IMG/VR virus record: IMGVR_UViG_3300045988_160567
Coordinates: 1 to 17,469 of that record
DNA: 17,469 nucleotides
Origin: a virus
Direction: 5' to 3' (one strand)
Each line of letters starts with the position of its first letter. Position 1 is the stretch's first letter. Shown one piece after another: positions 2,858-17,469 of this stretch. A program made the translations under genes and the position numbers. Under the pieces are notes generated by a model. That model did not search any database and had not been told where the DNA came from. It saw only the letters and a program-made list of their open reading frames with translations.

Positions 2858-3823
2858 ATGAGTGAGTTGGATGATCTTCGTGATGCTGTGCGCCGGGAGA
2901 ATCGGCGCGCGGGGAGGAAGTTGGCGTCTATCGCCAAGGGTACGTATGGTCTGCGTGGGCCGCTGGCGTATATGCGCGGGAAGGTCGAGGGTGTGGACGT
3001 TCGGGGCACTGAGTATGATCCTCGTGTGCCGGGCAGGCGCGTGGGGAGGATGACTACTGCGCAGGCTCGGGTCGCGTTGGAGCGTCTCACTGAGTTCAAT
3101 AACTCAAGGTCGGTGGGATTTTTCAGGGGAGTCGGCGGCGCGGTGATTTCTCGAAAGAATATGGCGGCGTACGCGTATGAGACGCGTCGGTATAATGAGG
3201 AACGTGCGGAATATCGTGCGCGGACGGCTAAGGTTCCGACGCCGTGGTCGGGGTTCGGGCGTACGGCTGAGGAAGTGCTGTCTTGGACGCGTCCGTCGCC
3301 GTGGGAGGCGCCTAAGAATCCTTTTGAGGATCATTTTGATCGTAAATTGCCTCTCCCCCAGCAGATCGTATCGGATGACGCCGCTAAGAAGTTGGCGGAT
3401 CATTTGGCGGAGGCTCGGTTGCCGCGTGGGTATGCGCGGCGGGCGGCTTTGGTGCGTGAGAATATTCGGGATATGGTGGCGCGCACGGGTGATAAGGATT
3501 TGCTGGAAACTATTATGGGCATGGACGATGAGACGCTCATGTTCGTGTGGACGGTGGACGGGACGCTCGCACGAAATATTTCATTCCGCTATGAAGCGGT
3601 GAAATATCTTGAATCGCCGCATCCGCGCACGAGTGAAGAAAAGTTGAAGTCGCGCACCGAGAACTTCCTCATGGGAATGGAGGATTCCCGCGCCGAGTTG
3701 GATCAATATTTGAAGGAGCTTTCCAGTGTCCGTGTCCCGTCGGCGCAGTCGTCGCAAAGGCGATCCTCTGGACGGCGTGGCGGTCGCGGATTTCGAGACG
3801 GACGCGGACGTCGCCGCCGATAG
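2858..3823 (+). CDS. Putative terminal protein, the primer for protein-primed replication (321 aa)
   Basis: The gene lies immediately upstream of, and overlaps, the protein-primed polymerase gene, as phi29 gene 3 does with gene 2. The N-terminus is basic. TAQARVALERLTEFNNSRSVGFF...VISRKNMAAYAYETRRYN is weakly similar to the phi29 terminal protein as I remember it. The C-terminal tail is Arg/Gly-rich. Confidence 0.65.
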   Translation: MSELDDLRDAVRRENRRAGRKLASIAKGTYGLRGPLAYMRGKVEGVDVRGTEYDPRVPGRRVGRMTTAQARVALERLTEFNNSRSVGFFRGVGGAVISRKNMAAYAYETRRYNEERAEYRARTAKVPTPWSGFGRTAEEVLSWTRPSPWEAPKNPFEDHFDRKLPLPQQIVSDDAAKKLADHLAEARLPRGYARRAALVRENIRDMVARTGDKDLLETIMGMDDETLMFVWTVDGTLARNISFRYEAVKYLESPHPRTSEEKLKSRTENFLMGMEDSRAELDQYLKELSSVRVPSAQSSQRRSSGRRGGRGFRDGRGRRRR

Positions 3824-5426
3824 TACTCACGTGTGGGCGTGGTGTCTGCGTGAGGTGAATGCTGAGTGCGGGTACCAGTACGGCACGACTATTGATTCGT
3901 TCATGGCCCGCGTCCTGCATTCCGGGCTGGACGTGTATTTCCACAACCTGCGCTTTGACGGCAATTTCATTATCTACTGGGCTCTGACGCACGGTTACAA
4001 GCACATTGAAGTGGATTCGTCGAAGGATATCATCCCGGAGAATCACTTCTCATGTCTCATTGATGACATGGGGATGTTCTACGCGATTCGATTCCCGGAC
4101 GTCATCTTCAAAGACTCGCTCAAAAAACTGCCCATGACGGTCGGGCAGATGGCGAAAGCGTTCGAGTGCGATCAGGGGAAGGGCGAGATCGACTACACGC
4201 TCCCCCGTCCGGTTGGGTATGAGCCGACGGCGGCTGAGTGGGAGTATGTGCGCACGGATGTGAGTATCGTGGTGACGGCGTTGTCTGAGGTGATTCGTGA
4301 GGGTATGCGGGCGTTGACTGTGGCTTCGGACGCCCTGCACGAGTTCAGGGGCCTTTTCGGTTGGAAGAACTTCGAAAAATACTTCCCGCGCCTGCCGCTC
4401 GATATTGACGCGGATATTCGACGCGCATACAGGGGCGGTTTTACGTACGCGGATCGGCGGACGGCGGGGATGCTGGTTGAGAATGGGTCGGTTTATGACG
4501 TTAATTCTTTGTACCCGTATGTGATGCGCGAGCGGCCGCTCCCCTATGGTGTGCCGGTGCGTTTCGAGGGCGGGCCGCCGTCGGATGGTCTGTGGGTGGG
4601 TCATGTGACGCTGACTGCGCGGATCAGGCCAGATCATATTCCGTGCATTCAAGTGAGGTCGGGGTTTCGTGGTTCGTCGTCGGAGTATGCCGATGAGATC
4701 GTGGAGCCGACGACTTTCAGCGTGTCTTCGGTGGACTGGGCGCTGTGGAATGATCAGTACGATATTGAGGTTTACGCTTGGGATGGTGGCTGGCGGTTCG
4801 CGTCGCGACGGGGGTTCTTCGATTCTTATATTGATAAATGGGGCGCGATCAAGGCCGAATCCAAGGGCGGGAAACGGGCCATGGCGAAACTGTACCTTAA
4901 TTCTTTGTACGGGAAGTTCGGCAGTGGCACCGATGCGACGGGTCGCGTGCCCGTGATGGAGGATGGTGCCGTGCGTCTCGTGCAGGGTAGGGCGAGGACG
5001 CGTGAGCCGGTTTATACGGTGTTGGCGGTTTTTGTGACGTCATGGGCTCGGGACTATACTATTAGGACGGCGCAGAAGAATTATGATCGCTTCCTCTACG
5101 CGGATACTGACTCGCTGCATCTTCTGGGCGCTGAGGATCCTGTGGGTGCGGATGTGCATCCGACGCGGTTGGGTGCGTGGGCGCATGAGAGCGACTTTGA
5201 TAGTGCGGTTTTCAACCGGGCAAAGCAATACTGTGAGAGTAAAGACGGCATTAATGATACCCACATCGCCGGCCTGCCCCGCCACCTGGGAGACAAAATC
5301 TCCCCCATTGACATGTTGCGCGATCAATGTTGGGGCGGTAAACTAGTCCCGAAGAGGATTCCGGGCGGCGTGATCCTCCGAGAGACTTATTTCACATACG
5401 CCGCAGTGAGAGGAAGATCATCGTGA
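3726..5426 (+). CDS. Family-B, protein-primed DNA polymerase (phi29 gp2-like), 566 aa
   Basis: All expected motifs are present: ExoI ADFETD, ExoII HNLRFDGNFI, ExoIII YVRTDVSIV, AYRGGFTY, motif A DVNSLYPY, motif B KLYLNSLYGKFG, motif C LYADTDS, and the KxY motif RAKQY. The GTG start at 3726 lies 7 nt after the Shine-Dalgarno sequence AAGGAG (3713-3718). Confidence 0.97.
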   Translation: MSVSRRRSRRKGDPLDGVAVADFETDADVAADSTHVWAWCLREVNAECGYQYGTTIDSFMARVLHSGLDVYFHNLRFDGNFIIYWALTHGYKHIEVDSSKDIIPENHFSCLIDDMGMFYAIRFPDVIFKDSLKKLPMTVGQMAKAFECDQGKGEIDYTLPRPVGYEPTAAEWEYVRTDVSIVVTALSEVIREGMRALTVASDALHEFRGLFGWKNFEKYFPRLPLDIDADIRRAYRGGFTYADRRTAGMLVENGSVYDVNSLYPYVMRERPLPYGVPVRFEGGPPSDGLWVGHVTLTARIRPDHIPCIQVRSGFRGSSSEYADEIVEPTTFSVSSVDWALWNDQYDIEVYAWDGGWRFASRRGFFDSYIDKWGAIKAESKGGKRAMAKLYLNSLYGKFGSGTDATGRVPVMEDGAVRLVQGRARTREPVYTVLAVFVTSWARDYTIRTAQKNYDRFLYADTDSLHLLGAEDPVGADVHPTRLGAWAHESDFDSAVFNRAKQYCESKDGINDTHIAGLPRHLGDKISPIDMLRDQCWGGKLVPKRIPGGVILRETYFTYAAVRGRSS

Positions 5427-5614
5427 CTGAGGACCGGATGTGCAATATTTCCACTACTATTCCGCGCAATCTCTACGATTATGTGGACGACATGCACTGG
5501 CGCGAGCGGCGCAGCATCGCGTCAATCGTGCGTGACGCGATCCGAGACTGGGCACTGGCCCGCGGATGGGAGGATTGTGATACTCTTTTCTCGCAGGATT
5601 CCGAAGCGCAGTAG
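5423..5614 (+). CDS. Small ribbon-helix-helix (CopG/Arc/MetJ-like) DNA-binding protein, 63 aa
   Basis: ISTTIPRNLYDYVDDMHWRERRSIASIVRDAIRDWALARG fits a strand-helix-helix pattern. The GTG start overlaps the polymerase stop (GTGA) and follows the RBS GAGAGGAAG. It is the last gene of the early operon. Confidence 0.65.
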   Translation: MTEDRMCNISTTIPRNLYDYVDDMHWRERRSIASIVRDAIRDWALARGWEDCDTLFSQDSEAQ

Positions 5615-5700
5615 GCGCCCCGTCGAGATCGGCTCGCCGTGATAGGTGCTCGACGGATGTGATCGCAGGCCCCTGCCGCTACTGCGCGCGGGTGATTCTG

Positions 5701-5709
5701 TGTTATATT
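5701..5709 (+). promoter_or_regulatory. Candidate extended -10 element (TGTTATATT) of a late promoter
   Basis: TGn plus TATATT sits immediately upstream of the late operon. There is no recognisable -35 element, so the promoter may be activator-dependent. The call rests on sequence pattern only. Confidence 0.3.
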
Positions 5710-5754
5710 GGGACGGGGAATTGGATTTCAATTCCCCGTCCCGCTCTTTTATTT
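5710..5754 (+). terminator. Rho-independent terminator ending the left early operon
   Basis: Perfect 14-bp stem GGGACGGGGAATTG (5710-5723) / CAATTCCCCGTCCC (5729-5742) with loop GATTT, followed by GCTCTTTTATTT. Confidence 0.75.
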
Positions 5755-5767
5755 GAGAGGAAATGTG

Positions 5768-6076
5768 ATGGCTGAGTTTTCAGATCTCATCGCAGCACTG
5801 CAGTCCGACTCCCCGCCTGAGAGTATTTATGATGACTTGACCGCCGCCTACGGTGAGCGCGCACAGCTGGCCGAGTCGGCTGGCGCCCGTGTGGCCGAGC
5901 TGGAGGCGGCCAATGCCGCGCTCCTGGCGGAGATCGGGGACCTCAAGGCCCGGAATTATGACCTTCTCGTGCGCGTGGGGGATGATTCCCCGGCCGATTC
6001 GGGAGATTCCGGGGCTGGCGAGGATGAACGGGCGGAGACCATTACTGTGGATGATCTTTTCAAGGAGGATGAGTGA
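5768..6076 (+). CDS. Scaffolding protein (phi29 gp7-like), 102 aa
   Basis: ATG 5768 follows the RBS GAGAGGAAA. The protein is acidic with a helical coiled-coil character (AELEAANAALLAEIGDLKARNYDLL). Its C-terminus ETITVDDLFKEDE resembles phi29 gp7 ETITIEDLEAK. The gene lies directly upstream of the capsid gene. Confidence 0.8.
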   Translation: MAEFSDLIAALQSDSPPESIYDDLTAAYGERAQLAESAGARVAELEAANAALLAEIGDLKARNYDLLVRVGDDSPADSGDSGAGEDERAETITVDDLFKEDE

Positions 6077-7476
6077 TCGTGGGACGCAATCCCGGCGTTA
6101 TCATTGACGCCAACAACCAAGATGTACTGAACGCGATTCGGAATGGGGCGTCGTTTGATTATCAGCGGCGTATTCCGGCGGCCACGCAGGCGAATGTCTC
6201 GGAGGTCCTGGGCACGCTGACGCGCTATCGTCCCCTTTACAATGAGTTCTGCGACGCGCTCGTCAACCGAATCGGCCTCGTGGTCGCCCGGAATAACATC
6301 TGGACGAATCCGTTGGCCGTTTTCAAGCGCGGCAATATTGTGCACGGATCGCAGATCGAGGAGATCCAGACGGGTCTTATCGAGGCGCGCGAGTACTCTC
6401 CTCAGCGCGATTATCTTGAGGGCGAGATCTTCGGGCAGAAGCGACTGGACGTTCGCTCCGCATTTCACACGGTGAATCGCCAGAATTACTATCCCGTGAC
6501 CGTGAATGAGGCGATTCTCCGCCGTGCGTTCCTCGAGGACGGCGGCCTCTCCTCGTTCGTCTCCCAGGTCATGTCCGCGCCGACGACGTCGGATCAGTGG
6601 GACGAGTTCCTGCTCATGACGTCTCTTTTCAAGGTCATGGACTCCACAGCGAGTATTTTCCGCGTCAAGTCGCCGAATCTTCAGCCGCTGAGCGCGACGG
6701 CCGAGGATGCCCGGGCTGCGCTCAAGGTCCTACGGGCGACGGCCGGGCGGCTGGGATTCCTGTCCACCAATTATAATCCCGCGAGGATGCCGACTTTCGC
6801 GTCCCCCGAGGATCTTGTCATCTTCGCGTCCCCGGAGTTCGTCGCGAATATTGACGTGGAGGCGCTCGCCGCGGCGTTCAATATGGACCGGGCGGACGCG
6901 CCGTCGCGGATTATTCAGATCCCACAGGAATGCTTCGGGATCACTGAGTGTCAGGCGATTCTGACGACGCGCGATTTCTTCATGGTCGCGGACACGCTCA
7001 TCGAGACGCGTTCGCAGATCAATCCGGTCGGGCTCACGACGAATTATTTCCTGCACCATCACGAGATCATTTCGGCGTCGCGTTTCGCGCCGTGCGTGAT
7101 GCTGACGACGGGAACTGCGACCGTGATCCCGGCCGCCCCGAAGGCGCCGGTCCTGGGCGCGCTGACGGTGAAGCGGCTGGACGGCTCGGATGTGCCGGCG
7201 ACGGGCGCGGTGCCGGGGGAGACGCTTGTCGTGTCCGCTCCCGTGACCGGGGGCGATGGTTTCGAGTGGGGTATTGATTTCGAGGTCAGATACAATCTGT
7301 CCTCGAAGACGCGGATCGATAATGAGGGCGTGCTCACGATTTCCCCGTCGGAGAAGGGTGGTTCGCTCACGATCGTGGCGTCTCTCGCCTACAGGCCCGC
7401 GGATAATCCTCAGGCCGCCCCGAGCGAGAAGAATGCGTCGATCAAGGTCGAGATCGCGAAGGCGATCAAGGAGTGA
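6073..7476 (+). CDS. Major capsid protein (phi29 gp8-like) with a C-terminal Ig-like (BIG2-type) domain, 467 aa
   Basis: Several segments resemble phi29 gp8 as I remember it: DVLNAIRNG, NRIGLVV, IEEI, FHTVNRQNYY, AFNMDRAD, DFFMVADTL and NYFLHHH. The C-terminal ~100 aa are beta-rich and Ig-like. The start is GTG 6073 or GTG 6079, after AAGGAGGA. Confidence 0.93.
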   Translation: MIVGRNPGVIIDANNQDVLNAIRNGASFDYQRRIPAATQANVSEVLGTLTRYRPLYNEFCDALVNRIGLVVARNNIWTNPLAVFKRGNIVHGSQIEEIQTGLIEAREYSPQRDYLEGEIFGQKRLDVRSAFHTVNRQNYYPVTVNEAILRRAFLEDGGLSSFVSQVMSAPTTSDQWDEFLLMTSLFKVMDSTASIFRVKSPNLQPLSATAEDARAALKVLRATAGRLGFLSTNYNPARMPTFASPEDLVIFASPEFVANIDVEALAAAFNMDRADAPSRIIQIPQECFGITECQAILTTRDFFMVADTLIETRSQINPVGLTTNYFLHHHEIISASRFAPCVMLTTGTATVIPAAPKAPVLGALTVKRLDGSDVPATGAVPGETLVVSAPVTGGDGFEWGIDFEVRYNLSSKTRIDNEGVLTISPSEKGGSLTIVASLAYRPADNPQAAPSEKNASIKVEIAKAIKE

Positions 7477-7485
7477 CGATTTCGC

Positions 7486-7517
7486 GGGCGCCCGGGAATA
7501 TTATTTCCCGGGCGCCC
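7486..7517 (+). terminator. GC-rich hairpin after the capsid gene, a possible attenuator or RNA-stability element
   Basis: 13-bp stem GGGCGCCCGGGAA / TTCCCGGGCGCCC with loop TATTAT. No T-tract follows it, so it is probably a partial terminator or a processing/stability element. Confidence 0.4.
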
Positions 7518-7533
7518 GGGAAAGGATTATCGA

Positions 7534-12800: not shown

Positions 12801-14147
12801 ATGGCTTTTGACGCGCAGCATAAAGCCTGCATCATCGCAACACTCGCGCAAGTGGAGGCGTCCGGCAATTATGGCACGATTACCGCGCCGGACACGCTCT
12901 CACTGGGCATCGGGCAGTGGACCCAGGGCCGCGCATATGACCTGCTGAAAAGATTCCCCGCGGGCACGGACTTCGGCGCCACGGTCAATTCCTGGCTCGC
13001 CCAGGGCCGGGACTCGTGGACGATTTCCGCACGCAAATACCAATACCTCAATTCAGCGGACCGGGCGGCATTATCCGGCGCACTCGCATCCCAGACGGGC
13101 CACCAAATCCAAGACTCCCAGATGGAAACGGACCTGACAAATGACTATATTCCCCGGTGCGCCGAACTCGGCCTCGACCCCGAAACCGAGACCGAGGCGT
13201 GCATGCTCCTAATAGTGGTCATGCACCGCTGGGGAAATTACGCGCGCATCCTGACCCGCCTCGCTGAAGGCGCCGGCCACCCTGCCACACTCGATTCAAT
13301 GTTCGCCGCCGTAAAAGCCGAAGGCGAATACGCCGCCGTACCCGGCCGCTATGACACGGCCGTCCCCATGATCCGAAACCTCCAGACAAATGGGGTCCAG
13401 ATCACGGGCGGCGACGGCAGCCAGCCCGGCGCCGGCTACAAACCGGGCGACGATTCAGGCGGGAAATCCCCGAAGGATCAAGTGAAATTGGAGAAGAATA
13501 AACTTCCCCTTTACGTCAGTAAATCGGGTTCCAACTTAATTCTCCACTACGCCGACGGGCGCACCATCACAGCCAGCCCCACACCCACAGGAGAGCACTG
13601 GCAGATATCCACATCCCAAGCGATCCACACGGGATCCACCGGCATCGGCACCGGACAGGCCCCGCCCGGCACCGGAGGCCAGCCCGGCGGCGGCGGCGGC
13701 GGCACAGCCGACGAGCGCATCCACAGGATGACCCAGGAGGCGCTGTCCACGCTCGGGAAATACGTCTACCACCAATGGTATCAGCCGCGACTTCATCCCG
13801 ACCAGTCCGGCGTATCCGACTGCTCCGGATGGACCTGGTACCTCATGATGAAATATTTGGGTGTGGATATTGACCCCAATGGCACGGCGGCAATTTGGGA
13901 TTCCCCTACCGGCTATGTAGTCGCCCAAGGTTCGGGGACATTCAACGCCGTGTCCCAGATCAAGGAGGGCGATTTGATCGTCTGCCGATGGTGGAGCGGC
14001 GGCGGCCACATAGAATACTGCCCCCAAACCGCCACCGACCTGTCCGTCGGAATGCGCGGACCCGACGGCGCAATGGGCCCCAACGGGCCATCGCCCGCCA
14101 CGTCACTTTTCACCGGATGCGAATGGAAATTGAAGCGATATGTCTGA
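12801..14147 (+). CDS. Tail-associated cell-wall hydrolase (phi29 gp13 analogue), 448 aa: lysozyme/transglycosylase-like N-domain, Gly/Pro linker, NlpC/P60-type cysteine peptidase C-domain
   Basis: The N-domain QVEASGNYG...LGIGQWTQ is SLT/lysozyme-like. The linker is GIGTGQAPPGTGGQPGGGGGGT. The C-domain has DCSGWTWYLM (catalytic Cys) and WWSGGGHIEYC (His). The position matches phi29 gene 13. Confidence 0.8.
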   Translation: MAFDAQHKACIIATLAQVEASGNYGTITAPDTLSLGIGQWTQGRAYDLLKRFPAGTDFGATVNSWLAQGRDSWTISARKYQYLNSADRAALSGALASQTGHQIQDSQMETDLTNDYIPRCAELGLDPETETEACMLLIVVMHRWGNYARILTRLAEGAGHPATLDSMFAAVKAEGEYAAVPGRYDTAVPMIRNLQTNGVQITGGDGSQPGAGYKPGDDSGGKSPKDQVKLEKNKLPLYVSKSGSNLILHYADGRTITASPTPTGEHWQISTSQAIHTGSTGIGTGQAPPGTGGQPGGGGGGTADERIHRMTQEALSTLGKYVYHQWYQPRLHPDQSGVSDCSGWTWYLMMKYLGVDIDPNGTAAIWDSPTGYVVAQGSGTFNAVSQIKEGDLIVCRWWSGGGHIEYCPQTATDLSVGMRGPDGAMGPNGPSPATSLFTGCEWKLKRYV

Positions 14148-15135
14148 CTACTATGATTTCGGAAATCTGCTCTCACGCAACGGGGTATTCAACATGGTCG
14201 TGGGCGCCCGCGGCGTCGGCAAAACCTACGGCGCCAAACTCATGGTCATGAAGAATGCCATTGAGAAGGGCGAAGAGTTCGTCTACCTGCGCCGCTACAA
14301 AACAGAGATGCGAACCACTCAGACATTCTTCGCCGACGTCGCCCACGAATACCCGCGCCACAATTTCCGAGTCAACGGCGGCGAGGCGCAATATAAGGAG
14401 AGGGGCGCGCGGAAATGGATCACGTTCGGCTATTTCGTGGCACTCTCCACGGCCCAGAAAATGAAGTCCGTGTCCTATCCCAAGGTCACGCGGATCATTT
14501 ATGACGAGTTCATCATTGAGAAAGGATACGTGCGATACCTCCCCGCCGAAGTGGACGCACTCCTATCCTTCTACAGCACTGTGGACCGCTGGCAGGACCG
14601 CACTCGCGTACTCATGCTCGCCAACGCCGTGAGCATTGATAATCCCTATTTCATTAAATGGAATATCGAACCGTGCGGGAAGGAGTTCGTCACGCGGGGC
14701 GACGGTTTCGTGGTCTGCCAGTTCGTCAATTCCGCGAACTTCAGTTCGCGCGTGCGTGAAACGCGATTCGGCCGATTCCTCGAATCAATGGATCCCGTCG
14801 GAGCCGCATACTCCATTGATAATCGCTTCGCCGACTACACCAATGTCTGGGTGGACGATAAACCCGCCGGCGCCACGCCCGTTATCATACTGAGACTACC
14901 CGAGGGGTCGCTCTCGATTTGGACACACAAAGATCTGTGGTATGCTCAGAAACGGCTCCCGAAGACGGACCTGCCACGATTGGCGTTCGATCACGACGAT
15001 TTGCGCGAAGGTGAGGTACAGGTATCCTACAGTGATAAAATCATGGTCATGCTCCGCACGCAATTCCGCCACGGCCGCATGAGATTCGATAGCCCCCAAA
15101 CCCGTTCGATCCTGAAAGGAATATTCCTCAAATAA
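14140..15135 (+). CDS. DNA encapsidation ATPase (phi29 gp16-like), 331 aa
   Basis: Walker A is VVGARGVGKTYG and Walker B is RIIYDEF. FVYLRRYKTE, LANAVSIDNPYF and RETRFGRF parallel phi29 gp16 (FIYVRRYKPE, LSNAVSVVNPYF, RKTRFGRL). Confidence 0.95.
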   Translation: MSDYYDFGNLLSRNGVFNMVVGARGVGKTYGAKLMVMKNAIEKGEEFVYLRRYKTEMRTTQTFFADVAHEYPRHNFRVNGGEAQYKERGARKWITFGYFVALSTAQKMKSVSYPKVTRIIYDEFIIEKGYVRYLPAEVDALLSFYSTVDRWQDRTRVLMLANAVSIDNPYFIKWNIEPCGKEFVTRGDGFVVCQFVNSANFSSRVRETRFGRFLESMDPVGAAYSIDNRFADYTNVWVDDKPAGATPVIILRLPEGSLSIWTHKDLWYAQKRLPKTDLPRLAFDHDDLREGEVQVSYSDKIMVMLRTQFRHGRMRFDSPQTRSILKGIFLK

Positions 15136-15332: not shown

Positions 15333-16023
15333 CCTCGACTATTTCATCGCGCGCATGCGATGGTGGTGCGAGAGCAGCGACCTCGGATATGGTCAGGACA
15401 CGCGATGGAACATCTATGACGGCGGCGACGCCGACTGCTCCAGCCTCGTGATCCACACCCTCCAGGAGGCCGGCTTCGATACCGGCGACGCCAACTCGAC
15501 CCACGACCTGCTACCAGCCCTCGCAGTACGCGGCTGGACACTCGCCTCCCCGCCGCTCATGGCCGGAGATATCCTCCTGTCCCCCGGCAGTCACGTCGCA
15601 GTATACTTGGGCGACGGCATGCTCGCAGAAGCGAATATCAACGAGAACGGCGATATCATTAACGGCCGACCGGGCGACCAGACCGGACAGGAAACCCGCG
15701 TCACAGAATATTACGATCACCCATGGGACTACATTCTTCGATACACGGAGAATACCGCTGAAATCATTTCCAAGGAGGAAGACGAAATGAAGATCCTAAC
15801 CGATGAGAATGAGATCGGATACCTGCTCAACGGACATTCCTGCAAGAAGATCTCATACCCTCAGGCAGTCGCACTCGCAGAAATCGGTGTCCCGAACCAG
15901 CGGGTTTCCAGCACGACCCTCTACAACATCATGGAGGCCATACACGAAAGCGCCTATGACATGACCGTCACCGCAGAGGCATACAAGGCCGCCGCACAGA
16001 GACTCGCAGCCGCCGGCAGCTGA
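15325..16023 (+). CDS. Endolysin: cysteine amidase/peptidase of the Amidase_5 / NlpC-P60-CHAP clan plus a C-terminal putative wall-binding region, 232 aa
   Basis: GYGQDTRWNIYDGGDADCSSLV (catalytic Cys), GSHVAVYLG (His) and NGRPGDQTGQE are typical of phage peptidoglycan amidohydrolases. I chose ATG 15325, which is coupled to the holin stop, over the 15241 start. Confidence 0.82.
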   Translation: MSDLDYFIARMRWWCESSDLGYGQDTRWNIYDGGDADCSSLVIHTLQEAGFDTGDANSTHDLLPALAVRGWTLASPPLMAGDILLSPGSHVAVYLGDGMLAEANINENGDIINGRPGDQTGQETRVTEYYDHPWDYILRYTENTAEIISKEEDEMKILTDENEIGYLLNGHSCKKISYPQAVALAEIGVPNQRVSSTTLYNIMEAIHESAYDMTVTAEAYKAAAQRLAAAGS

Positions 16024-16033
16024 CCGCACACAT

Positions 16034-16070
16034 GAATAACCCCGGGACCGACTCGGTCCCGGGGTTATTC
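16034..16070. terminator. Hairpin terminator between convergent late (+) and right early (-) transcription units
   Basis: Perfect 16-bp stem GAATAACCCCGGGACC (16034-16049) / GGTCCCGGGGTTATTC (16055-16070) with loop GACTC. It lies in the 57-nt gap between the two convergent stop codons. The A/T-rich ends of the stem could serve both directions. Confidence 0.7.
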
Positions 16071-17006: not shown

Positions 17007-17120
17007 GCCGGTTTCGTGTGAGCCTGGTCACCAACCGACCGGCCGGTTAATTTAGGGACAGTTTGTGACCGACGCCACGCTCGCTCGATCTTGACAAACC
17101 GCGAATGTGATGCGCCCCAT

Positions 17121-17136
17121 TTAACCGATCGGTTAA
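17121..17136. promoter_or_regulatory. Perfect 16-bp palindrome TTAACCGATCGGTTAA, ITR-R copy
   Basis: Identical to 333-348 although the flanking ITR sequence differs. Confidence 0.45.
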
Positions 17137-17469
17137 TTTGGGTGCGTGACCAACGCCACATAAAAGGGTCTTGACAAGCGCCGGCTGTGATGCGCCTCAC
17201 GGAAATTGATGTGACGTGGACCACAAACACGCAGTCGGCCACCACGAGACACAGCACCGGACCCAGCCGACTCAGACGGCCCTCAGACGCGCTGTAAGGG
17301 CCCTAGAAGCGATCGGCATAGGTGGGTGTGTGTCCATGCCTAGGCCGATTTTTTCGTCCGTTCTAGGTGGGTTACAACGCGTTCTAGAGGGTGTGTGATG
17401 TAGATCATGTTACGGATGTTACTAGTGTGACTGATGGGGAAATTGAGGCGTTTTCTGCATATATACCCC

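Follow-up and report, generated by a model that had tools for sequence, protein, structure and literature searches.

A conserved structured RNA gene between the early and late genes of a phi29-like phage genome and its resemblance to prohead RNA

The gap between the early and the late genes

IMG/VR virus record IMGVR_UViG_3300045988_160567, analysed over its whole length of 17,469 nucleotides (nt) and referred to below as the window, is a complete linear phage genome of the phi29-like, protein-primed podovirus type. The present analysis deals with the gap at positions 5615-5767, situated between the last early gene, an RHH-like open reading frame (ORF) of 63 amino acids, and the first late gene, which encodes a scaffold-like protein. 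It is the largest gap inside the + strand gene block, all other gaps being at most 74 nt long. The gap is best read as an RNA gene and not as a set of protein-binding sites. This gene would encode a non-coding + strand RNA of approximately 160 nt, whose first 110 nt (5592-5702) fold, as covariation shows, into a three-way junction, followed by a 7-nt A/U linker and a terminator hairpin.

An initial annotation, made from the letters of the window alone, had listed several elements in this gap, all of which were retrieved upon inspection of the sequence. They comprise an 8-bp hairpin (CCGTCGAG, 5620-5627, with CTCGACGG, 5649-5656), GTGAT copies at 5639, 5659, 5692 and 5765, the element TGTTATATT at 5701-5709, a perfect 14-bp stem (5710-5723 with 5729-5742) followed by GCTC and TTTTATTT, and a ribosome-binding site (RBS; GAGAGGAAA, 5755-5763) preceding an ATG at 5768. 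It is the interpretation of these elements that changed. The GTG at 5765 is not the start of the scaffold gene, as only ATG 5768 is conserved in all relatives.

A conserved structure read from the + strand

Relatives of the window were collected by capsid-based scans of IMG/VR and metagenome contigs, which yielded six close and approximately 30 distant sequences, and by a scaffold-protein search with contig look-up, which yielded eleven more (72-87% scaffold identity) and two distant ones; individual relatives are indicated by L numbers. In each of them, the scaffold gene is immediately preceded by a gap of approximately 150-160 nt, or of greater length in the distant ones. In a first alignment of six sequences, both hairpins carried paired substitutions, with G-U pairs on the + strand. 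RNAalifold analysis of a plain MAFFT alignment of 17 sequences resulted in 49 pairs, 14 of them with compensatory changes. For the 39 pairs of the junction domain in a MAFFT alignment of 15 sequences, 95.2% of the cells were paired, compared with 35-47% when the partners were slid by 1-3 columns. Similarly, 12 of these pairs had changed on both sides, compared with 5.7 ± 1.4 after shuffling (none of 500 shuffles reached 12) and 0-6 after sliding. The paired cells contained 78 G-U and only three A-C combinations, indicating that the RNA is read from the + strand.

The segment 5592-5754 of the window alone folds into the same shape, with a single-sequence minimum free energy of -81.2 kcal/mol (z = -5.8). 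An RNA from the minus strand was considered and rejected, as the reverse strand folds 12 kcal/mol less well (-69.3 kcal/mol) and as the excess of G-U over A-C combinations speaks against it. Furthermore, the identity to the relatives is higher for the RNA (0.775) than at third codon positions (0.59-0.62). The small ORFs in the gap are not conserved among the relatives, because the loops carry indels of 1-3 nt. A protein-coding gap (ORFs 5646-5756 and 5659-5775, and 5522-5731 on the minus strand) was therefore rejected, the substitutions tracking base-pairing as well. Taken as a whole, the region very probably encodes a conserved, structured + strand RNA that is transcribed from a promoter of its own.

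The elements of this RNA are listed in Table 1, in which the A-, C-, CE-, D- and E-like labels refer to the parts of phi29 prohead RNA (pRNA) that they resemble. In the RNAalifold model, the closing helix consists of 23 pairs between 5592-5617 and 5677-5702, five of which have changed on both sides (for example, alignment columns 11/103 are AU in seven sequences, CG in six, GC in one and UG in one). The 8-bp hairpin of the initial annotation is real but does not stand alone, as it is one arm of the three-way junction. Besides the bulge, the E-like loop (5639-5644) is strongly kept (identity to relatives 0.917). The GGCC at 5668-5671 is able to pair with the GGCU of the bulge, a pairing that has no statistical support. 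The 3' part of the RNA (5710-5754), a G+C-rich stem-loop with a close U-tract, is by its predicted features an intrinsic terminator. Its hairpin (5710-5742) was the top match of a terminator scan of the genome and is among only three long intergenic hairpins. The stem contains nine G-C pairs (-26.7 kcal/mol) and shows compensatory changes in four pairs, the hairpin sequence being near-invariant in the relatives.

Table 1. Elements of the predicted RNA gene and genes of the window, with positions in the 17,469-nt sequence
Feature	Position	Strand	Remarks
Predicted extended -10 element TGATACTCT (TGnTAnnnT) of the RNA gene	5578-5586	+	Inside the last codons of the 63-amino-acid RHH-like ORF
Closing helix, 5' strand (A-helix-like)	5592-5617	+	Overlaps stop codon TAG (5612-5614); predicted transcript start 5592-5594
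C-like helix, 5' strand CCGUCGAG	5620-5627	+	Pairs with 5649-5656; compensatory changes in 4 of 8 pairs
7-nt 5'-side bulge AUCGGCU (CE-loop-like)	5628-5634	+	Identity to relatives 0.955, the most conserved segment
E-like stem-loop, 4-bp stem CGCC/GGUG, 6-nt loop GUGAUA	5635-5648	+	2 of 4 pairs compensatory; loop holds the first GTGAT
C-like helix, 3' strand CUCGACGG	5649-5656	+	Directly after the E stem, without 3' bulge
Single-stranded junction AUGUGAUC	5657-5664	+	Second GTGAT copy; identity 0.648; GTGTT, GAGTT or GAGTA in relatives
D-like hairpin GCAG, loop GCCC, CUGC	5665-5676	+	Four pairs, one compensatory (GC in 13, AU in 2)
Closing helix, 3' strand	5677-5702	+	Holds the third GTGAT and the TG of the proposed late extended -10
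A/U-rich linker UUAUAUU, 7 nt	5703-5709	+	Hexamer TATATT (5704-5709) is a candidate late -10
Terminator hairpin, perfect 14-bp stem, 5-nt loop	5710-5742	+	3' domain of the RNA, compare domain II of phi29 pRNA
GCUC followed by U-tract UUUUAUUU	5743-5754	+	U-tract from 4 nt past the stem; predicted RNA 3' end approximately 5750-5754
RBS GAGAGGAAA and scaffold ATG (5768)	5755-5770	+	First late gene
Candidate terminal protein		+	Position only, no family match
Type-B DNA polymerase	3726-5426	+	Pfam DNA_pol_B_2, E = 3e-50
63-amino-acid RHH-like ORF	5423-5614	+	Last early gene
Scaffold-like protein	5768-6076	+	First late gene; weak Pfam match to Phi29 scaffolding protein
Phi29-type major capsid protein	6073-7476	+	Pfam Phi29_MCP, E = 8e-102
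Tail knob, connector, lower collar and two tail enzymes		+	Genes 3' of the capsid gene
gp16 packaging ATPase	14140-15135	+	Pfam Podovirus_Gp16, residues 2-330 of 331, E = 8e-59
Endolysin		+	Late block

Predicted promoter and discreteness of the RNA gene

The RNA gene has its own conserved extended -10 element at 5578-5586. The pattern TGnTAnnnT occurs at the same offset in 17 of 17 members of the window clade, its last base lying 6 nt (5 nt in L081) upstream of where pairing begins. The amino acid residues encoded across it differ, being CDTL in the window and PAIM in L001, so that its invariance reflects a constraint on the DNA. Transcription of the RNA would thus proceed from a -35-less extended -10 element to the 14-bp terminator and its U-tract (approximately 5750-5754), with a start predicted approximately 7 nt past the -10, at 5592-5594, which are the first nucleotides of the closing helix. 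The initial annotation had offered, as a second interpretation, a small structured RNA ending at the terminator. The existence of this RNA is borne out by the covariation, but it begins approximately 22 nt earlier, at 5592/5593, within the terminal part of the preceding ORF. The C-terminal third of the 63-amino-acid ORF is poorly kept among the relatives, apart from the stretch shared with the RNA promoter and the helix strand.

In the distant relative L084 (Logan SRR27294585, positions 2241-2500), the order of elements is an early-operon terminator, a -10 element TGGTACTGT of the same geometry, the RNA (E loop UUGAGU), a TAATAT linker and the RNA's own terminator. Judged from its sequence, the RNA gene in L084 is clearly a separate unit. 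The same arrangement weakens the claim that the terminator serves to insulate the early from the late genes, since the early operon of L084 has its own terminator upstream of the RNA gene.

Distribution among actinobacterial phi29-like phages

A covariance model built from the junction domain of the window clade alone matched the element of Arthrobacter phage Mendel, full-length and syntenic (28.6 bits, E = 2e-5), as well as elements of several uncultured phages (E = 0.004-0.5). In a second clade of 13 sequences, including Mendel, RNAalifold independently gave the same architecture, with compensatory changes in 17 of 34 pairs. Models of this second clade matched "Rhizobium" phage RHph_N3_8 (E = 7e-11), L024, L058, L006 and the Pize-like L008 (E = 7e-5 for L006 and L008), and also, with E = 0.03-0.9, the bulged hairpin of members of the window clade. 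In the last search with such a model, all eight matches at E ≤ 5 were located on the predicted element. The family link is solid when searched from the window clade and marginal in the reverse direction.

In addition, a hairpin descriptor was applied, defined as a stem of at least 4 bp, a 5' bulge of 5-10 nt, a stem of at least 3 bp and a loop of 6-7 nt of the form nUGAn(n), without 3' bulge. It recovered the hairpin of phi29 pRNA itself, which served as a control, and found the motif in the syntenic gap of Pize, Reje, PineapplePizza, Av-1, Mendel, L008, L009, L029, L034 and L084. Overall, the bulged hairpin is present in the syntenic gap of 11 lineages, with a background frequency of 0.06 per 200 nt. 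The strict descriptor found no hairpin in Transit, BadAargau2, Voltaire, L007, L012, L006 and L085; variants of the hairpin were recognized by eye in Voltaire and RHph_N3_8, and RHph_N3_8 and L006 were matched by the covariance model. A loop of the nUGAnn type occurs in every lineage and in phi29, for instance UUGAAU in the Mendel clade, CUGAUA in Reje, AUGAAC in Av-1 and UUGAGU in L084. The element is thus found upstream of the scaffold gene in phages of Curtobacterium, Microbacterium, Actinomyces, Arthrobacter and "Rhizobium". In the GenBank records examined, no RNA is annotated at its position. When IMG/VR was scanned with the conserved loop motif GATCGGCTCNCCGTGAT, 12 additional matches were obtained, all of which were discarded as chance occurrences inside unrelated coding sequence.

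Several public annotations touch the element. The coding sequence (CDS) of gene 7 of Microbacterium phage PineapplePizza (start at L095 1501; region 1484-1620) and a CDS of Curtobacterium phage Reje (start at L051 2503; region 2408-2560) start such that they overlap the predicted RNA and terminator, and these starts were probably called too far upstream. In Av-1 (L053 1826-1853), -35 and -10 signals annotated in GenBank lie inside the bulged hairpin of the predicted RNA. In L085/L086 (2195-2505), a holin gene, instead of the polymerase or RHH gene, is located upstream of the scaffold gene; the 298-nt gap contains an A/T-rich promoter-like stretch, a G+C-rich structured segment that includes a 5'-bulged hairpin with loop UUGC, and a terminator.

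Comparison with phi29 prohead RNA

The structure line of phi29 pRNA in Rfam (RF00044) served as the basis for comparison. Phi29 pRNA is 174 nt long and consists of domain I (1-117), a 13-nt linker and domain II, a hairpin at 131-174 (PMC5066667). The known pRNAs share only approximately 12% sequence identity (PMC5066667). The element order A-C-bulge-E-C'-D-A' is common to phi29 pRNA and the RNA of the window. Indeed, the A helix of phi29 pRNA, formed by both RNA ends, closes a three-way junction, as does the 23-pair helix in the window. Domain I measures 117 nt in phi29 and 110 nt in the window, and is followed in both by a linker (13 vs. 7 nt) and a 3' hairpin. The C helix has 9 bp in phi29 and 8 bp in the window, and the junction leading from A to C has 1 and 2 nt, respectively. 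The bulge is found at the same position and on the 5' side only (9 nt, the CE loop, vs. 7 nt). The E stem has 4 bp in both RNAs (CUGA/UCAG in phi29), and the 6-nt E loop, UUGAGU in phi29 and GUGAUA in the window, contains UGA in both; the loop of phi29 is identical to that of L084. Finally, the D hairpin stacks directly on the A' strand in both (direct return).

Other traits differ. The junction between C and D has 3 nt in phi29 and 8 nt in the window, and the D hairpin has 6 bp with a 5-nt loop in phi29 compared with 4 bp and a 4-nt loop in the window. A 3-nt bulge in the 5' strand of the phi29 A helix has no equivalent in the window helix, and the window RNA is G+C-rich, unlike phi29 pRNA. 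Concerning the gene and its surroundings, phi29-type pRNAs are discrete small transcripts of approximately 120-174 nt, with a promoter and a terminator of their own, both of which are predicted from sequence in the window. The phi29-type packaging set, represented in phi29 by the gp16 ATPase, the gp10 connector, the terminal protein and the type-B polymerase, is present in the window phage too.

By this analogy, it is reasonably likely that the RNA is the counterpart of the phi29 prohead or packaging RNA. In that case, a ring of this RNA would sit at the portal vertex of the empty prohead, kept in place by the capsid and the basic N-terminus of the connector. The gp16-type ATPase, which pumps the terminal-protein-capped DNA into the head, would dock onto the long helix of the RNA, and the RNA would then leave the finished virion.

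Several observations weigh against this identification. Firstly, RF00044 gave no match at the gathering score or at E ≤ 10 in positions 5400-5900 of the window or 2380-2680 of Mendel, phi29 itself scoring 145 bits. Secondly, phi29 pRNA was not matched by the models of the window clade and the second clade, so that architecture is the whole basis of the proposed homology. Thirdly, 3-6 bp can be formed in most lineages between the D loop and the bulge (GGCU/GGCC in the window, GCAGCU/AGCUGC in Mendel and GCAA/UUGC in Pize), but cognate combinations were no better than non-cognate ones across 11 lineages (permutation p = 0.68), in a comparison of low power. The complementarity score is crude, the known AACC/GGUU of phi29 not being its best run either. 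Fourthly, the second-clade models gave no match to the window itself at E ≤ 5, and its clade members were matched only marginally. Fifthly, no promoter was found just upstream of the element in the second clade, where processing of the early transcript at its 3' end may yield the RNA. Sixthly, the pRNA gene of the Bacillus phages is located at the left genome end and transcribed together with early genes, whereas the gene in the window (5592-5754 of 17469) is flanked by early genes on one side and late genes on the other, all on its own strand. Lastly, its fixed site directly upstream of the late operon would also fit a cis-acting leader of that operon.

The conserved and, by prediction, independently transcribed structured RNA could have another binding partner altogether, no match to pRNA having been obtained at the sequence level. 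It could, for instance, be another trans-acting phage small RNA, such as a 6S-like polymerase decoy, an antisense regulator or an anti-defence RNA, which would have only the three-way-junction shape in common with pRNA. This is very improbable, as the RNA occurs only together with phi29-type packaging genes and always beside head genes, and as the sizes of specific elements match those of pRNA. Moreover, no Rfam family was matched, 6S RNA included; a search of the whole genome gave no match elsewhere either, permissive thresholds producing noise only (miRNA and scaRNA models on the terminator).

Late transcription

The initial annotation had interpreted the gap as a DNA-level early/late switch. 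In the form considered here, this switch comprises an insulating terminator, GTGAT repeats as operators for the RHH protein, and a -35-less late promoter, TGTTATATT, whose transcripts would start at approximately 5716, inside the terminator stem, and thereby escape termination. The upstream ORF plausibly encodes an RHH protein, and GTGAT is locally clustered, a fifth + strand copy at 5577 bringing the number to five in 193 nt. GTGAT is also mildly enriched genome-wide (65 copies vs. 44.7 ± 6.5 expected). However, the switch fails as an explanation of the whole region, as conservation tracks RNA pairing with one-strand G-U wobble and not DNA motifs. Two of the GTGAT copies vary in the relatives, which keep only the copy at 5639 and, mostly, that at 5692. 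The copies belong to the hairpin loop (5639), the variable junction (5659) and the closing-helix strand (5692). A role as repeated operator was therefore rejected, since only some copies are conserved and each is part of a different structural element. Nor is TGNTANNNT enriched in the genome (16 copies vs. 14.2 expected in the window); both of its copies hold their position in the relatives, and this positional keeping is the significant part.

The late promoter can be considered separately, as it is compatible with the RNA gene. A nATAnT hexamer abuts the terminator stem in 17 of 17 close relatives and likewise in L084 (TAATAT) and Av-1 (TATTGT). Within the linker hexamer, TATATT in the window and CATAAT or TATAGT in relatives, A2 and T6 are invariant among the 17 close relatives. 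The sequence that remains before the scaffold gene is too short for another promoter. With a start at 5716, the transcript would retain only an 8-bp 5' hairpin (-16.6 vs. -28.3 kcal/mol), at a distance of approximately 9 nt from the U-tract. What speaks against such a promoter is that the TG of the proposed extended -10 corresponds to the two terminal paired bases of the closing helix, that this TG is missing in L078 and L079, and that an A/U-rich single-stranded linker is general to the family at this place. Moreover, the second clade (including Mendel), Pize and Reje have no -10-like hexamer, although they have the same RNA, the same terminator and late genes to express. A late promoter nested in the RNA gene is therefore doubtful.

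The terminator of the RNA would also end early transcription, and late mRNA would therefore have to arise from terminator read-through or from the -10-like hexamer in the linker. Late transcription could equally result from read-through, starting at the early promoter or at the RNA's own promoter. A single RNA gene might thus perform two jobs, providing the packaging RNA of the motor and acting as a gate, by means of a leaky terminator, a nested promoter or both, for all late transcription (head, tail, lysis and ATPase). This combination is rather unlikely; if true, the output of motor RNA would be hard-wired to the output of the proheads to which the RNA binds, and prohead RNA would be ancestral to all phi29-like phages instead of being peculiar to those of Bacillus. 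In phi29, the early/late switch (A2c/A2b/A3, p4 and p6) likewise lies where the early genes adjoin the scaffold gene (gene 7), and a gene for a small DNA-binding protein is found beside it. The early and late promoters of phi29 are divergent and regulated by protein binding to DNA. In contrast, the genes in the window are co-directional and the conserved signal is an RNA structure.

Alternatively, the RNA may act in cis on the late operon, as a leader or an attenuator. The element at 5578-5586 would then be the late promoter, and the junction RNA would bind a phage protein or modify RNA polymerase, by put/nut-like antitermination or as a protein-controlled attenuator. It would thereby decide between a stop at 5742-5754 and reading into the scaffold and capsid genes, the short RNA being a by-product. 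HK022 put, lambda nut and riboswitch-type leaders display the same order of promoter, structured RNA, intrinsic terminator and operon. Indeed, promoter, structured RNA, terminator and first late gene follow each other in every lineage, including L084 and L085 with their different upstream genes. Furthermore, a separate late promoter would find no room after the terminator, and a second strong hairpin (7480-7523), located after the capsid gene, requires read-through too. The C-rich stretch 5618-5624 is able to pair with the 5' arm of the terminator. A riboswitch-like antiterminator of this kind (5618-5624, CCCCGUC, with 5712-5718) was nevertheless rejected, as the pairing is lost in L090 and L002 and as C/G runs make such matches cheap. 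Unlike put, nut and leader RNAs, the junction domain is self-closed by the 23-pair helix and separated from the terminator by the linker, no mutually exclusive pairing with the terminator is conserved, and no Rfam model matches. Known put RNAs consist of two simple stem-loops, an architecture different from that of the window RNA. In addition, a leader function leaves both the pRNA-like architecture with its UGA loop and the near-invariance of the terminator hairpin sequence unexplained, and is improbable.

Genome context

The genome ends of the window are imperfect inverted terminal repeats (1-200 and 17270-17469), with 11 of 11 terminal positions perfect and 138 of the first 150 positions identical, indicating a complete linear and presumably protein-primed genome. 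Almost all genes are on the + strand and arranged in phi29 order (Table 1), except for two leftward genes at the right genome end (16608-16081 and 16925-16689). The host of the phage is of the high-G+C, actinobacterial type. The nearest cultured relatives share less than 50% capsid identity and are phages of Curtobacterium, Arthrobacter, Actinomyces (Av-1), Glutamicibacter and Microbacterium; no close DNA relatives were found among 50,697 phage records.

The connector is recognized by Pfam Phage_connector (E = 9e-44) and its N-terminus, MGRRKRP, can be compared with MARKRS in phi29. In phi29, these basic (RKR) residues are reported to bind pRNA, and the similarity is the only hint, an indirect one, that the window RNA may bind the prohead at the connector. 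The 63-amino-acid ORF has a match to Pfam RHH_1 below the threshold (E = 0.016; 15.6 bits vs. a cutoff of 20.5), and its homologue in Mendel carries an RHH annotation. The polymerase ORF overlaps the preceding ORF of 321 amino acids by 98 nt (3726-3823), and relatives align only from polymerase residue 11-13 onwards; the true polymerase start is probably located further downstream.

Two further hairpins occur in the late region. A G+C-rich hairpin of 19 bp at 7480-7523, just after the capsid stop (7476) and before the tail gene (7534), is likely a partial terminator or an mRNA stabilizer in the path of late transcription. A perfect hairpin of 18 bp at 16034-16070 separates the + strand late operon, which ends at 16023, from the leftward genes, and probably terminates the converging transcription from both sides. 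Repeats near the genome ends (324-357 and 17085-17200) consist of palindromes with CCGATCGGTTAA-like halves and two copies of TCTTGACAA...TGTGATGCGCC. These repeats could represent early promoters or operators, perhaps recognized by the RHH-like protein. The best early promoter candidate is found at 463-491.

Significance for phi29-like phages

Reviews from 2016 and 2024 restrict the known occurrence of prohead RNA to phi29 and its relatives among the Bacillus phages (PMC5066667; PMC11476376). Within the literature collection searched, a prohead RNA was not reported from any other phages; no RNA is mentioned in the Ayka paper, and a Clostridium phage paper mentions only a pRNA-dependent ATPase. 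Whether other phi29-like phages package their DNA without prohead RNA is a question left open in the literature. What is new here is a conserved, pRNA-shaped RNA in phages of Arthrobacter, Curtobacterium, Microbacterium and Actinomyces and in related uncultured phages. Concerning annotation, several public CDS starts overlap this RNA and are probably over-called. Should the RNA act as leader of the late operon instead, it would represent a new class of phage regulatory RNA. If it is a true packaging RNA, it would provide very G+C-rich natural three-way junctions for RNA nanotechnology, which has hitherto relied on the phi29 junction, and several cultured and easily handled phages would become test systems. 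The RNA component of the packaging motor would then be ancestral to the lineage.

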